From NCBI RefSeq assembly GCF_051903065.1, contig NZ_CP178438.1: a DNA stretch of 64,000 nucleotides; one strand, given 5' to 3'. Shown piece after piece: positions 2,135 through 49,469 of this stretch. Every line of letters starts with the position of its first letter. Within the stretch, counting starts at the first letter, position 1. This stretch comes from Escherichia coli. Its GTDB lineage: Bacteria; Pseudomonadota; Gammaproteobacteria; Enterobacterales; Enterobacteriaceae. Under the pieces are notes generated by a model that was not told the DNA's origin, did not search any database, and saw only the letters and a program-made list of their open reading frames with translations. The position numbers were made by a program, and so were the translations under genes.

Positions 2135-2556
2135 CCTCGCGCATACAGCCGGGCAGTGACGTCATCGTCTGCGCGGAAATGGACGAACAGTGGGGCTATG
2201 TCGGGGCTAAATCGCGCCAGCGCTGGCTGTTTTACGCGTATGACAGGCTCCGGAAGACGGTTGTTGCGCACGTATTCGGTGAACGCACTATGGCGACGCT
2301 GGGGCGTCTTATGAGCCTGCTGTCACCCTTTGACGTGGTGATATGGATGACGGATGGCTGGCCGCTGTATGAATCCCGCCTGAAGGGAAAGCTGCACGTA
2401 ATCAGCAAGCGATATACGCAGCGAATTGAGCGGCATAACCTGAATCTGAGGCAGCACCTGGCACGGCTGGGACGGAAGTCGCTGTCGTTCTCAAAATCGG
2501 TGGAGCTGCATGACAAAGTCATCGGGCATTATCTGAACATAAAACACTATCAATAA
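2053..2556 (+). CDS. insB: IS1 InsB (transposase C-terminal part)
   Basis: 167-aa ORF in the -1 frame relative to insA, overlapping its 3' end; recognised as IS1 InsB. Confidence 0.9.
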
Positions 2557-2598
2557 GTTGGAGTCATTACCGGATTTCATTAAGAGCCATTAATATGT

Positions 2599-2628
2599 TA
2601 CCCATGGGGAATACTCCTTAATACCCAT
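2599..2628 (+). promoter_or_regulatory. NarL heptamer cluster upstream of narG (about -200 region)
   Basis: TACCCAT (2599-2605), TACTCCT (2613-2619), TACCCAT (2622-2628) match the NarL TACYYMT heptamer; position roughly 180-210 bp upstream of the predicted narG start site. Confidence 0.55.
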
Positions 2629-2761
2629 TTGCATAAAAATCTTAATAGTTTAAATAGCTACAGGTATAAAACGTCTTAATTTACAGCATGTTATGCTGTA
2701 ACTGTTAATTATCCTAAAGGGGTATCTTAGGAATTTACTTTATTTTTCATCCCCATCACTC

Positions 2762-2775
2762 TTGATCGTTATCAA
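2762..2775 (+). promoter_or_regulatory. FNR box of the narG promoter
   Basis: TTGATcgttATCAA at 2762-2775, about 92 bp upstream of the narG ATG, consistent with a class II FNR site at -41.5. Confidence 0.65.
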
Positions 2776-2866
2776 TTCCCACGCTGTTTCAGAGCGTTAC
2801 CTTGCCCTTAAACATTAGCAATGTCGATTTATCAGAGGGCCGACAGGCTCCCACAGGAGAAAACCG

Positions 2867-5800
2867 ATGAGTAAATTCCTGGACCGGTTTCGCTACTTCA
2901 AACAGAAGGGTGAAACCTTTGCCGATGGGCATGGCCAGCTTCTCAATACCAACCGTGACTGGGAGGATGGATATCGCCAGCGTTGGCAGCATGACAAAAT
3001 CGTCCGCTCTACCCACGGGGTAAACTGCACCGGCTCCTGCAGCTGGAAAATCTACGTCAAAAACGGTCTGGTCACCTGGGAAACCCAGCAGACTGACTAT
3101 CCGCGTACCCGTCCGGATCTGCCAAACCATGAACCTCGCGGCTGCCCGCGCGGTGCCAGCTACTCCTGGTATCTTTACAGTGCCAACCGCCTGAAATACC
3201 CGATGATGCGCAAACGCCTGATGAAAATGTGGCGTGAAGCGAAGGCGCTGCATAGCGATCCGGTTGAGGCATGGGCTTCTATCATTGAAGACGCCGATAA
3301 AGCGAAAAGCTTTAAGCAGGCGCGTGGACGCGGTGGTTTTGTTCGTTCTTCCTGGCAGGAGGTGAACGAACTGATCGCCGCATCTAACGTTTACACCATC
3401 AAAAACTACGGCCCGGACCGTGTTGCTGGTTTCTCGCCAATTCCGGCAATGTCGATGGTTTCTTACGCATCGGGTGCACGCTATCTCTCGCTGATTGGCG
3501 GTACTTGCTTAAGCTTCTACGACTGGTACTGCGACCTGCCTCCTGCGTCTCCGCAAACCTGGGGCGAGCAAACTGACGTACCGGAATCTGCTGACTGGTA
3601 CAACTCCAGCTACATCATCGCCTGGGGTTCAAACGTGCCGCAGACGCGTACCCCGGATGCTCACTTCTTTACTGAAGTGCGTTACAAAGGGACCAAAACT
3701 GTTGCCGTCACGCCGGACTACGCTGAAATCGCCAAACTGTGCGATCTGTGGCTGGCACCGAAACAGGGCACCGATGCGGCAATGGCGCTGGCAATGGGCC
3801 ACGTAATGCTGCGTGAATTCCACCTCGATAACCCAAGCCAGTATTTCACCGACTATGTGCGTCGCTACACCGACATGCCGATGCTGGTGATGCTGGAAGA
3901 ACGCGACGGTTACTACGCTGCGGGTCGTATGCTGCGCGCTGCTGATCTGGTGGATGCGCTGGGTCAGGAAAACAATCCGGAATGGAAAACTGTCGCCTTT
4001 AATACCAATGGCGAAATGGTTGCGCCGAACGGTTCTATTGGCTTCCGCTGGGGCGAGAAGGGCAAATGGAATCTTGAGCAGCGCGACGGCAAAACTGGCG
4101 AAGAAACCGAGCTGCAACTGAGCCTGCTGGGTAGCCAGGATGAGATCGCTGAGGTGGGCTTCCCGTACTTTGGTGGCGACGGCACGGAACACTTCAACAA
4201 AGTGGAACTGGAAAACGTGCTCCTGCACAAGCTGCCGGTGAAACGCCTGCAACTGGCTGACGGCAGCACCGCTCTGGTGACCACCGTTTACGATCTGACG
4301 CTGGCAAACTACGGTCTGGAACGTGGCCTGAACGACGTTAACTGTGCAACCAGCTATGACGATGTGAAAGCTTATACCCCGGCCTGGGCCGAGCAGATTA
4401 CCGGCGTTTCTCGCAGCCAGATTATTCGCATCGCCCGTGAATTTGCCGATAACGCTGATAAAACGCACGGTCGTTCGATGATTATCGTCGGTGCGGGGCT
4501 GAACCACTGGTATCACCTCGATATGAACTATCGTGGTCTGATCAACATGCTGATTTTCTGCGGCTGTGTCGGTCAGAGCGGGGGCGGCTGGGCGCACTAT
4601 GTAGGTCAGGAAAAACTGCGTCCGCAAACCGGCTGGCAGCCGCTGGCGTTTGCCCTTGACTGGCAGCGTCCGGCGCGTCACATGAACAGCACTTCTTATT
4701 TCTATAACCACTCCAGCCAGTGGCGTTATGAAACCGTCACGGCGGAAGAGTTGTTGTCACCGATGGCGGATAAATCCCGTTATACCGGACACCTGATCGA
4801 CTTTAACGTCCGTGCGGAACGCATGGGCTGGCTGCCGTCTGCACCGCAGTTAGGCACTAACCCGCTGACTATCGCTGGCGAAGCGGAAAAAGCCGGGATG
4901 AATCCGGTGGACTATACGGTGAAATCCCTGAAAGAGGGTTCCATCCGTTTTGCGGCAGAACAACCAGAAAACGGTAAAAACCACCCGCGCAACCTGTTCA
5001 TCTGGCGTTCTAACCTGCTCGGTTCTTCCGGTAAAGGTCATGAGTTTATGCTCAAGTACCTGCTGGGGACGGAGCACGGTATCCAGGGTAAAGATCTGGG
5101 GCAGCAGGGCGGCGTGAAGCCGGAAGAAGTGGACTGGCAGGACAATGGTCTGGAAGGCAAGCTGGATCTGGTGGTTACGCTGGACTTCCGTCTGTCGAGC
5201 ACCTGTCTCTATTCCGACATCATTTTGCCGACGGCGACCTGGTACGAAAAAGACGACATGAATACATCGGATATGCATCCGTTTATTCACCCGCTGTCTG
5301 CGGCGGTCGATCCGGCCTGGGAAGCGAAAAGCGACTGGGAAATCTACAAAGCCATCGCGAAGAAATTCTCCGAAGTGTGCGTCGGCCATCTGGGTAAAGA
5401 AACCGACATCGTCACGCTGCCTATCCAGCACGACTCTGCCGCTGAACTGGCGCAGCCGCTGGATGTGAAAGATTGGAAAAAAGGCGAATGCGACCTGATC
5501 CCAGGCAAAACTGCACCGCACATTATGGTCGTAGAGCGCGATTATCCAGCGACTTACGAACGCTTTACCTCTATCGGCCCGCTGATGGAGAAAATCGGTA
5601 ATGGCGGTAAAGGGATTGCATGGAACACCCAGAGCGAGATGGATCTGCTGCGTAAGCTCAACTACACCAAAGCGGAAGGTCCGGCGAAAGGCCAGCCGAT
5701 GCTGAACACCGCAATTGATGCGGCAGAGATGATCCTGACGCTGGCACCGGAAACCAACGGTCAGGTAGCCGTGAAAGCCTGGGCTGCCCTGAGCGAGTTT

Positions 5801-8852: not shown

Positions 8853-9529
8853 TGCAATTCCTGAATATGTTCTTCTTTGATATCTACCCGTACATAGCCG
8901 GGGCGGTCTTCCTGATTGGTAGCTGGCTGCGTTATGACTACGGGCAGTACACCTGGCGCGCGGCGTCCAGCCAGATGCTGGATCGCAAAGGGATGAACCT
9001 GGCGTCGAACCTGTTCCATATCGGTATTCTGGGGATTTTTGTCGGTCACTTCTTCGGTATGCTGACGCCGCACTGGATGTATGAAGCCTGGCTGCCGATT
9101 GAAGTGAAACAGAAAATGGCGATGTTTGCTGGTGGTGCCAGCGGCGTGCTGTGTCTGATTGGCGGCGTACTGTTGCTTAAGCGTCGTCTGTTCAGCCCAC
9201 GCGTGCGTGCAACCACTACCGGAGCGGATATCCTGATCCTGTCGCTGCTCGTTATCCAGTGCGCGCTGGGCCTGTTGACCATTCCGTTCTCCGCCCAACA
9301 TATGGACGGTAGCGAGATGATGAAACTGGTTGGCTGGGCGCAGTCGGTGGTGACCTTCCACGGTGGCGCTTCTCAACACCTCGATGGTGTGGCGTTTATC
9401 TTCCGTCTACACCTGGTGCTGGGGATGACGTTATTCCTGCTGTTCCCGTTCTCGCGTCTGGTACACATCTGGAGCGTACCGGTGGAGTATCTGACACGTA
9501 AGTACCAGCTGGTGCGCGCTCGTCACTAA
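8852..9529 (+). CDS. narI: Respiratory nitrate reductase A, gamma (cytochrome b) subunit
   Basis: 225-aa membrane protein recognised as NarI; start overlaps the narJ stop (TAATG). Confidence 0.93.
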
Positions 9530-9550
9530 GCGAATTTTAGTTCACATAGA

Positions 9551-9573
9551 CCCTGCTTCGGCGGGGTTTTTTT
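9551..9573 (+). terminator. narGHJI rho-independent terminator
   Basis: Hairpin ccctgc-ttcg-gcgggg followed by T7, 22 bp after the narI stop. Confidence 0.65.
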
Positions 9574-9596
9574 ATGGGCACGGTGCGGGGTGAGTT

Positions 9597-9668
9597 GTCG
9601 GATGCGCTTCGCTTATCCGACCTACAGGGGAGGATATTGTAGGTCCGGTAAACGCGGTGCCATCGGGC
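9597..9668. repeat. REP/BIME-type extragenic palindromic repeat pair
   Basis: gtcggatgcgcttcgcttatccgacctac followed by an inverted, REP-like copy ggtccggtaaacgcggtgccatcgggc; resembles the enterobacterial REP consensus. Confidence 0.5.
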
Positions 9669-9699
9669 AAAATTAGCTCGGAGTAACAGGTTTTGAGTA

Positions 9700-9882
9700 T
9701 TTCAGGAAGTAATGGTGGTGGGGGAAGGATTACTAGCGCTTCGCCCTTCGGGTCGTTGCCTGCGGCAACGCTTTCTCGCTGGCGCTCGAGTCGAACCTTA
9801 GTCGAAGCTTCTCATCCTTCCCCGCTTGGGCAGAATATTTAATTACGGATTCGTTTGAGAGTTCAGGGACTTTTGAAAGTGA
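9700..9882 (-). repeat. tyrT operon 3' trailer repeat region (tpr/rtT-like), about one unit
   Basis: Contains a copy of the last 19 nt of tRNA-Tyr (tggtggtgggggaaggatt at 9713-9731) about 170 bp downstream of the second tRNA, plus a tpr-like ORF (minus-strand ATG at 9815) interrupted by TAA after 5 codons. Confidence 0.6.
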
Positions 9883-9967
<85 letters not shown>

Positions 9968-10001
9968 AGGGGTAATTCAAATTTCGAGGTAATGCTTGAG
10001 A

Positions 10002-10086
<85 letters not shown>

Positions 10087-10129
10087 ACGGGGTAATGCTT
10101 TTTACTGGCCTGCTCCCTTATCGGGAAGC

Positions 10130-10170
10130 GGGGCGCATCATATCAAATGACGCGCCGCTGTAAAGTGTTA
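10130..10170 (-). promoter_or_regulatory. tyrT promoter
   Basis: Minus-strand -35 TTTACA (10159-10164) and -10 TATGAT (10137-10142) with 16-bp spacer; GC-rich discriminator; predicted start about 43 nt upstream of the mature tRNA 5' end; matches the classic tyrT promoter sequence. Confidence 0.8.
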
Positions 10171-10245
10171 CGTTGAGAAAAATGAACTGGTTGCGTAATT
10201 TTCATCCGTAACGGATTAAAGGTAACCAGTTATTTTTGCTGGCGA

Positions 10246-11088
10246 TTAAAGAATAATCGTCCGATTACCGTAAACAAAGACGCGCTGCGCCAGTACTTTG
10301 TAGAGCGCGCGACTTAAGACGTTTTTCTCGACGTCACGACCTGCACGCATCATATCTTCAGCTGTGTAGGTATGATCGACATGAATAACGTCCTGCATGA
10401 TGATTGGGCCTTCGTCCAGATTGTCATTAACATAGTGAGCTGTTGCGCCAATAATCTTCACGCCACGTTCATAGGCCTGGTGATAAGGACGTGCGCCGAT
10501 AAACGCTGGCAGGAAGGAATGGTGAATATTGATGATCTTATTCGGGAAGCGTGACACAAATTCCGGTGTTAATACCCGCATATACTTCGCCAGCACCACG
10601 TAGTCAGGTTGATAAGCATCAATGGCATCCGCCATCTTTTGATCGTGCTCGTTGCGGCTTAACCCTTCATGGCTTACCAGCTCAAACGGTATATCAAAAC
10701 GCTCAACCAGAGAACGTAAAGTATCGTGGTTACCAATCACTGCCGCGATTTCGACATCCAGGCCGCCGTAATTGGCTTTCATCAACAAATCGCCAAGGCA
10801 ATGCGCTTCTTTAGTGACCAGAATCACTATCCGGCGACGACCGGCAGGATTCAGCTCACGCACGGAGCCTTCTGGCAATGCGCTATCGAGATCCGCCAGC
10901 AGGGTGGAATCATTAAAAATCCCTTCCAGTTCCGTGCGCATAAAAAAGCGCCCGGTACGGTGATCAACAAATTCATTGTTCTGTACGATATTTAACTCGT
11001 GCTTGTAGCAAATATTGGTAATACGTGCGATCAGACCTTTTTGGTCCGGACAAATAGTACGCAGAACTTTACGTTGGAGTGAATGCAT
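10246..11088 (-). CDS. purU: Formyltetrahydrofolate deformylase
   Basis: 280-aa ORF recognised as PurU (ACT domain plus formyltransferase domain). Confidence 0.93.
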   Translation of the reverse strand: MHSLQRKVLRTICPDQKGLIARITNICYKHELNIVQNNEFVDHRTGRFFMRTELEGIFNDSTLLADLDSALPEGSVRELNPAGRRRIVILVTKEAHCLGDLLMKANYGGLDVEIAAVIGNHDTLRSLVERFDIPFELVSHEGLSRNEHDQKMADAIDAYQPDYVVLAKYMRVLTPEFVSRFPNKIINIHHSFLPAFIGARPYHQAYERGVKIIGATAHYVNDNLDEGPIIMQDVIHVDHTYTAEDMMRAGRDVEKNVLSRALYKVLAQRVFVYGNRTIIL

Positions 11089-48554: not shown

Positions 48555-49430
48555 ATGAGCGAAAAGCTACAGAAAGTGCTGGCGCGTGCCGGCCACGGTT
48601 CTCGCCGTGAAATCGAATCTATTATTGAAGCCGGTCGTGTGAGTGTTGATGGCAAAATTGCTAAACTCGGCGATCGCGTTGAAGTTACCCCTGGATTGAA
48701 AATCCGTATCGATGGTCACCTGATTTCGGTACGTGAGTCCGCTGAACAAATTTGTCGCGTTCTGGCCTATTACAAACCGGAAGGTGAGTTGTGTACCCGT
48801 AACGATCCGGAAGGACGTCCAACGGTGTTTGACCGTCTGCCAAAACTGCGTGGCGCACGCTGGATTGCCGTGGGTCGCTTGGACGTTAATACCTGTGGTC
48901 TGCTGCTGTTCACCACCGATGGTGAACTGGCAAACCGTTTAATGCACCCAAGCCGTGAAGTTGAACGTGAATATGCCGTGCGTGTATTTGGTCAGGTTGA
49001 CGACGCGAAACTGCGTGATTTGAGTCGTGGCGTGCAGTTGGAAGATGGTCCGGCAGCTTTTAAAACCATCAAGTTCAGCGGCGGCGAAGGGATCAACCAG
49101 TGGTACAACGTGACTCTGACCGAAGGCCGTAACCGTGAAGTTCGTCGTCTGTGGGAAGCGGTTGGTGTGCAGGTGAGCCGCCTGATCCGTGTTCGTTACG
49201 GTGATATCCCACTGCCAAAAGGTCTGCCACGCGGTGGCTGGACGGAGCTGGACCTCGCCCAGACTAACTATCTGCGCGAACTGGTGGAGCTACCGCCAGA
49301 AACCAGCTCTAAAGTCGCTGTAGAAAAAGACCGTCGTCGCATGAAGGCGAATCAGATTCGTCGTGCGGTGAAACGTCACAGTCAGGTGAGCGGCGGTCGT
49401 CGTTCTGGCGGACGTAATAATAACGGTTAA
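48555..49430 (+). CDS. rluB: 23S rRNA pseudouridine synthase RluB
   Basis: 291-aa ORF with S4 domain and Arg/Gly-rich C-terminal tail, recognised as RluB. Confidence 0.92.
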
Positions 49431-49469
49431 TCAAAGTATGCCGGACGTCATATCCGGCATTTTTACAGA

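Follow-up and report, generated by a model that had tools for sequence, protein, structure and literature searches.

REPs are the most abundant repeat family of Escherichia coli. They are imperfect palindromes of 30–40 nt that can fold into a stem-loop and are defined by a conserved GTAG/CTAC tetranucleotide at the foot, and binding by TnpA_REP requires this tetranucleotide together with non-complementary stem bases, GC opposite TT (PMC3333891). Two classes of BIME have been described: BIME-1, composed of Z1 and Y with a long conserved L linker that often holds an IHF site, and BIME-2, composed of tandem Y and Z2 with a short linker (PMC3333891). Three E. coli REP consensus sequences (Y, Z1 and Z2) are printed in PMC11208160, which also describes the specific insertion of IS621 in REPs at ATCAGGCCTAC/ATCGGGCCTAC. 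REPs in general have been described as partial Rho-dependent terminators and stabilisers, with a dual role proposed for REP325 (bioRxiv 10.64898/2026.03.23.713779). The supplementary table of the same preprint lists REP108 at MG1655 1286595–1286666, between narI and ychS.

We analysed a window of 64,000 nt of E. coli DNA (GCF_051903065.1, contig NZ_CP178438.1), in which positions 9596–9669 very probably represent the orthologue of K-12 REP108, a single inverted doublet of BIME type for which we infer a relic origin and effects on the neighbouring operons. Alignment with K-12 (K-12 coordinate = window + 1,276,997) projects REP108 onto window positions 9598–9669. The doublet runs from TGTCGGATGCGCTTCGCTTATCCGACCTACA (9596 to 9626) through the linker GGGGAGGATAT (9627–9637) to TGTAGGTCCGGTAAACGCGGTGCCATCGGGCA (9638 to 9669), and its feet face each other across the 11-nt linker, with CTAC of unit 1 at 9622–9625 and GTAG of unit 2, as read on the + strand, at 9639–9642. 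An inverted-repeat finder paired 9610–9626 with 9638–9654. With one unit on each strand (unit 1 +, unit 2 −) and a linker of 11 nt, the locus has the make-up of a BIME. The first-pass annotation of this DNA had placed a REP/BIME pair at 9597–9668. The matches of both units to a REP covariance model, the alignment with K-12 doublets (both below) and the REP108 catalogue entry bear out the pair, and the boundaries were correct to within 1–2 nt. The inverted orientation of the units agrees with the facing CTAC and GTAG feet, and the gene and RNA coordinates confirm that the doublet separates convergent narGHJI (+) and tyrT-tyrV-RtT (−) transcription units. That annotation had also called this the usual location of such elements, in line with the approximately 60% of E. 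coli REPs that lie between convergent genes (bioRxiv 10.64898/2026.03.23.713779). The doublet is already catalogued in the reference strain and is an ordinary member of the REP family.

The doublet is extragenic, lying between the narI stop codon and the trailer of the tyrT operon; the narGHJI terminator begins 19 nt past the stop codon, upstream of the REP pair (Table 1). An Rfam search over 9400–10300 at E ≤ 1 returned RtT and tRNA only, with no family covering the REP doublet. RtT content varies in this region: the window carries one repeat and a 19-nt partial repeat, K-12 carries three repeats (with the dubious ychS and tpr ORFs) and other strains carry 0 to 3 units, so that the REP of the window, with its one RtT repeat against three in K-12, lies nearer to tyrV. 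The tyrT-tyrV spacer measures 34 nt in the window and 209 nt in K-12. A TTG-initiated ORF of 32 amino acids (9572–9670, − strand) lies wholly inside the REP and terminator sequence. The part of the − strand that spans the linker and unit 2 also contains sigma-70-like hexamers (ATGGCA, a 16-nt spacer and TACAAT; 9/12 matches) at 9636–9663 that point to narI; a promoter reading was set aside because the number of such sites in the 900-nt region was near the chance level (two found, 0.5 expected from shuffles).

Table 1. Features of the narI–tyrT region, in window coordinates.
Feature	Position	Strand	Basis or remark
narI stop	9529	+	end of narGHJI operon
narGHJI intrinsic terminator, hairpin and T-run	9548–9576	+	terminator scan; also paired in fold
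REP unit 1	9596–9626	+	covariance model R1, nhmmer, hairpin fold, ET201 IS621 insertion
Linker, 11 nt	9627–9637	.	CTAC-to-GTAG spacing; doublet alignment
REP unit 2, inverted, degenerate	9638–9669	−	covariance model R1, CE20 IS621 insertion
C-rich, G-poor stretch of tyrT-operon transcript, candidate rut	9683–9742	−	C minus G, 40-nt windows
RtT repeat, single unit, tyrT operon trailer	9713–9836	−	Rfam RF00391, 118.9 bits, E = 1.2e-25
tRNA-Tyr genes, two	9883–9967 and 10002–10086	−	tyrT operon

Given that the window holds no other canonical REP, we built an external reference from K-12. The Y, Z1 and Z2 consensus sequences served as nhmmer seeds, matched many loci in K-12 segments and yielded 28 copies from MG1655 segments elsewhere on the chromosome; the copy of RefSeq NC_000913.3 that we used contains no REP repeat_region features. 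A covariance model (R1) was then constructed from 17 non-redundant K-12 REPs, with this locus excluded, on the known two-helix REP structure. R1 was searched with filters off against the whole 64-kb window and also against the 353-nt narI–tyrV intergenic region alone. On further K-12 segments, known REPs scored 30–60 bits by R1, and two weak annotated REPs of K-12 scored 19.6 bits (REP106) and 17.7 bits (REP103). Simpler searches were less useful: a fixed-gap consensus pattern with three mismatches allowed gave zero matches in the window, a failure attributable to the variable loop lengths of REPs, and scans for head and tail motifs were too noisy, with the canonical tail present just once in the window.

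Unit 1 is a clean, intact REP. It is the top R1 match in the window (44.7 bits, E = 5.3e-11; E = 2.9e-13 in the intergenic search), so that the alignment to REP consensus sets that the first-pass annotation had named as its check comes out clearly for this unit, against an independent REP set and with corresponding REP108 coordinates in K-12. It is also the best Z2 match by nhmmer (E = 0.016, 25/30 identities). The unit is of Z2 length (31 nt) and has the GTCGGAT...ATCCGAC stem subtype, a stem that recurs among other K-12 REPs; relative to Z2, stem positions 2/24 and 4/22 differ, both in a compensatory manner. Its hairpin reaches −12.6 kcal/mol on the + strand (z = −4.1; 0/200 shuffles as good) and −12.3 kcal/mol on the − strand (z = −3.5). 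The GC/TT internal mismatch is kept (GGAT-GC-GC...GC-TT-ATCC) and aligns to unpaired columns of the model.

Unit 2 is far less well preserved. It is the third R1 match in the window (12.2 bits, E = 0.3 over the 128 kb searched), reaches E = 0.0017 when the intergenic region alone is searched and has E = 27 against the Z2 consensus by nhmmer. Compared with the majority K-12 allele, the window carries two SNPs in this unit, T instead of C at 9644 and C instead of T at 9655. By R1, 20.8 bits are reached with the K-12 allele (E = 8.8e-6 in the intergenic search), on a level with the weak annotated REPs REP106 and REP103. The outer stem GCCCGAT/ACCGGGC pairs at 6/7 positions with the K-12 bases, and the T at 9644 breaks one of these pairs; the inner stem is lost. 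Folding of unit 2 was no better than that of shuffles (z = +0.3 and −0.1; z = −0.9 for the K-12 allele). The whole doublet folds as one long hairpin, with −33.8 kcal/mol (z = −3.6) on the + strand and −24.7 kcal/mol (z = −2.2) on the − strand. The unit 2 of the window is a decayed, degenerate remnant and not a self-folding palindrome, which refines the earlier description of two palindromic units. Given its E value of 0.3 and the lack of a fold, the label of a pair rests in part on position, orientation and the better-kept allele of K-12.

The same weaknesses could be taken to mean that unit 1 is a solitary REP, and that what we call unit 2 is unrelated intergenic sequence with a GTAGG and chance matches: the window-wide and Z2 scores are poor, and the fold is no better than shuffles. 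However, this third-best match in 128 kb lies 11 nt from the best one and on the other strand, so placed that the two meet foot to foot in the canonical manner; its local E value is 0.0017 and the K-12 allele, with 6/7 stem pairs, scores higher by R1. In the doublet alignment, unit 2 falls together with the second units of the others, a wild-type IS621 has inserted at its CT core with 8/9 positions matching the guide of the IS, and the K-12 catalogue counts it within REP108. Together, these observations largely refute the solitary reading, which we regard as very unlikely. Column-for-column alignment with the K-12 doublets REP95, torD–cbpM, REP325 and REP118 shows the same order of a CTAC-ending unit, a short linker and a GTAG-beginning unit. 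The linker GGGGAGGATAT can be aligned to the short stretches that join CTAC and GTAG in further doublets of K-12 and resembles the S-type; the REP325 linker GGAGGGTGCGGGAATTT is related to it, with a 4-nt gap.

Two natural insertions of IS621 mark the two arms. In strain ET201, IS621 lies in unit 1 at the CT of CTAC (window-equivalent 9622–9623; within 1440–1580 of the extracted locus), in the arrangement ...ATCCGACCT, the IS, then ACAGGGG, that is, ...ATCCGACCT^AC. In strain CE20, a wild-type IS621 lies at the CT core of unit 2 (window-equivalent 9641–9642, ...ACCGGGCCT^AC; within 2530–3830 of the extracted locus), as a separate event and in the opposite orientation to the ET201 copy. Given the specificity of IS621 for REPs, these insertions confirm independently, and on functional grounds, that each arm is a REP foot. 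The two IS621 copies themselves differ in their 5′ non-coding region, where the ET201 copy reads ccgtATCCGACCTtggg...ctgcgcggtag and the CE20 copy, in the same place, ccgtATCGGGCCTtggg...ctgttgcgtag. A 9-nt segment of this region matches the host arm in each case: ATCCGACCT equals unit 1 at 9/9 positions, and ATCGGGCCT equals unit 2 (ACCGGGCCT) at 8/9. The target-binding loop of wild-type IS621 encodes the ATCGGGCCTAC specificity (PMC11208160), the start of which is ATCGGGCCT, and by its position we read the 5′ segment as the putative target-binding loop.

Exact copies of the ATCCGACCT variant were also found in C9, PT62, GF4-3, downstream of znuB in ET201 (1.89 Mb) and in MB53; C9 and PT62 were counted as one locus because of their identical flanks, which leaves four loci besides REP108. 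At every locus examined, the left flank of the variant copies was CTTATCCGACCT, inside REPs of the GTCGGAT/ATCCGAC type. About 15 records carry the variant at ≥99% identity, and 2,237 of the 5,426 genomes contain IS621-like 5′ ends, with a median of five copies. From sequence comparison, the variant looks like a natural IS621 lineage with a left target guide that may have been retuned to a REP sub-type. Covariation of guide and target across the IS110 family has already been published, and the present case is an illustration rather than a discovery: the two arms of one doublet display IS621 copies with differing 5′ non-coding regions in different REP sub-types.

Further insertions mark the narI–tyrV intergenic region as a recurrent IS landing zone. 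In STEC17-190, IS4 lies in the linker (2534–3962 of the extracted locus) with a 12-bp duplication, GACCTACAGGGG; in UPEC132, an IS4-family element (206–1405 of the extracted locus) lies between the narI stop and the segment that holds the terminator and REP108. In approximately 12% of genomes (for example, U15A), a cluster of seven lipid-modification genes fills the interval from narI to a single tRNA-Tyr gene, in place of the nar terminator, REP108, RtT and one tRNA-Tyr gene (equivalent to window 9530–9967). The products of the cluster are a KAS-III-like protein, an epimerase, an MBL hydrolase, an F390-synthetase-related protein, a PAP2 phosphatase, a sterol desaturase and a fatty-acid desaturase. 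As these ~12% of genomes lack the segment yet keep narI and a tRNA-Tyr gene, REP108 is dispensable. With SNP decay, insertions of both IS621 and IS4, and replacement by the seven-gene island in ~12% of strains, the doublet is a polymorphic spot.

The 72-mer occurs in 4,727 of 5,426 complete E. coli genomes (~87%), at a median of one and a maximum of three places per genome, which indicates an old single-copy locus and not a recently spreading REPIN. Exact matches to the 72-mer of the window were found in 401 records and to that of K-12 in 2,823, showing that the strain of the window has the minority, weaker allele. Natural alleles decay without compensation, as seen in the SNP at 9644 in unit 2 and in the stem of unit 1 in ET201, where a G has become a C; this pattern speaks against strong selection on the structure. 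Scans of a contig collection for outgroup sequences with the exact 23-mer CCTACAGGGGAGGATATTGTAGG and with a degenerate pattern for the narI 3′ end (the last eight codons and the stop) gave zero matches each; because the narI pattern is expected in any E. coli, its zero appears to reflect a limit of the scan, and the lack of outgroup matches does not indicate biological absence.

These data bear on the possibility that the doublet is an active REPIN, that is, currently mobile and copied by the RAYT/TnpA_REP transposase. Its units can form a single long hairpin (−33.8 kcal/mol, z = −3.6), and unit 1 keeps the GTAG/CTAC and the stem mismatch needed for TnpA_REP binding (PMC3333891). However, the 72-mer sits at the orthologous locus only, at the low copy number given above, unit 2 has decayed, the pair is single, with no tandem amplification, and no RAYT gene was found nearby in the stretch examined, all of which make present mobility highly improbable. 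Most likely, the doublet is a relic, a non-proliferating element of BIME type. It may have been deposited long ago through the REP/RAYT (TnpA_REP) single-strand mechanism and would since then have been an immobile relic drifting through point mutation.

Two other REP-like matches lie elsewhere in the window. The second-best R1 match (49435–49459, − strand, 17.5 bits, E = 0.008) is a hairpin, TGCCGGACGTCATATCCGGCA, with an A-run and a T-run at its sides, set in the gap between two convergent ORFs, the ends of which are at 49430 and 49470. It corresponds to the bidirectional terminator of K-12 adjoining REP109 (bioRxiv 10.64898/2026.03.23.713779) and is a minimal REP-like stem without a CTAC foot or inner helix. 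At 2290–2316 on the + strand, GCGACGCTGGGGCGTCTTAT matches the Z1 apical helix only (nhmmer E = 0.09; covariance model 11.6 bits, E = 0.47) and, having neither the outer stem nor the foot of a REP, is probably an unrelated small hairpin.

The position of REP108 between convergent units raises the question of its part in ending transcription. Hairpins in this setting might be an intrinsic (Rho-independent) or bidirectional terminator of the tyrT operon, and not a member of a repeat family that has an incidental position; 78 REPs have indeed been placed within predicted bidirectional terminators (bioRxiv 10.64898/2026.03.23.713779). Here, however, neither hairpin leads into a U-tract on the − strand (unit 1 is followed by CAACUCACCCCGCACCG), T-runs are absent after both REPs on both strands and the terminator scan gives the narI terminator alone in the region. 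In addition, 'narI' does not occur among those entries of the preprint's bidirectional-terminator list that the search covered. As neither hairpin is followed by a U-tract, the doublet is not an intrinsic terminator, and we consider a terminator of either kind to be exceedingly unlikely.

A Rho-dependent end of the transcript is a candidate on the − strand. The C-minus-G excess of the − strand RNA rises to +15 per 40 nt between 9742 and 9683, immediately 5′ of the REP in the tyrT direction, and the REP doublet is the first stable structure past the last RtT repeat on that strand. A Rut peak detected by H-SELEX (Helicase-SELEX) has been reported on the − strand at MG1655 1286609–1286798, equivalent to window 9612–9801, both with and without NusG, with a log10 enrichment of 1.43 and a 57-nt overlap with REP108; it overlaps a bicyclomycin-sensitive transcript (bioRxiv 10.64898/2026.03.23.713779). 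The primary screen behind this peak is probably that of PMC9499579, an attribution of our own. The C-rich tract of the window lies inside the published peak. Rho would load on the C-rich, G-poor tract of the tyrT-operon transcript and release the tyrT-tyrV-RtT transcript within the REP or shortly past it. The REP hairpins, above all that of unit 1, may serve as a pause site or as a 3′-exonuclease barrier that limits antisense transcription into narI. The doublet thus probably lies within the zone in which Rho ends the transcription of tyrT-tyrV-RtT. On the + strand, where a strong intrinsic terminator precedes it, the REP would have little influence on the narGHJI mRNA.

Whether REP108 is more than a passive relic, as a working part of this Rho-dependent end that shields narI from antisense read-through, is a separate matter, and we hold such a role to be possible but rather doubtful. 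Against a strong selected role stand the uncompensated decay of the alleles and the dispensability of the segment; moreover, the greater part of the Rut peak lies upstream of the REP, and the peak would be there even if the REP were absent. If REP108 does have this role, the SNPs in unit 2, the insertions of IS621 and of IS4, and the island in ~12% of genomes would lead to strain differences in the 3′ ends of tRNA-Tyr/RtT transcripts and in nar antisense transcription. Beyond complete annotation, the importance of the doublet is slight; it marks the probable Rho-termination zone of the tyrT operon transcript.

The spacing and composition of the units place the doublet among the BIMEs. The CTAC-to-GTAG gap of 11 nt falls into the short class (approximately 14–16 nt in other K-12 doublets), as opposed to the long class of 31–33 nt. 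Membership in BIME-1 was rejected given this linker length and the absence of the Z1 apex from both units. Membership in canonical BIME-2 was also rejected: the short linker and a unit 1 of Z2 length are present, but there is only one pair and no canonical Y. Binding of IHF, by way of the L linker, and of gyrase has been described for BIMEs (background in PMC3333891), and the locus could accordingly be viewed as a DNA-topology element, either an IHF-binding BIME-1/RIP type or a gyrase-binding BIME-2. A linker of 11 nt, as against 31–33 nt in the long class, leaves no room for an IHF site, and a single pair differs from the tandem array typical of BIME-2, which renders a topological element extremely improbable. 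The doublet is best described as an atypical, BIME-2-like single pair.

Among known systems, REP108 of K-12, in the narI–ychS/rttR intergenic region, is the closest: the locus, the 72 nt bar two SNPs and the flanks (the narI terminator and, opposite, RtT) are shared, whereas unit 2 is weaker in the allele of the window (12.2 versus 20.8 bits) and RtT is present as one repeat instead of three. With BIME-2 and atypical BIMEs (for example, REP325 at yjdM–yjdN), the doublet shares inverted REPs with facing feet, a short related linker and a unit 1 of Z2 length, but BIME-2 is a tandem array and the window has a single pair in which both units are short and neither is a canonical Y; unlike the BIME-2 reference, unit 1 has a G-type (Y-like) position 5 and a T-A replacing the second C-G pair. 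The geometry of the doublet, its fold as one long hairpin and the GTAG/CTAC and stem-mismatch determinants of unit 1 are those of REPIN–RAYT systems, from which it differs in having one decayed arm and no sign of recent copying. Finally, as in the natural REP targets of IS621, both units carry insertions at the CT of their CTAC foot in other strains, as published for ATCAGGCCTAC/ATCGGGCCTAC; the difference lies in unit 1, which carries ATCCGACCTAC and has received an IS621 copy with ATCCGACCT where the wild type has ATCGGGCCT.
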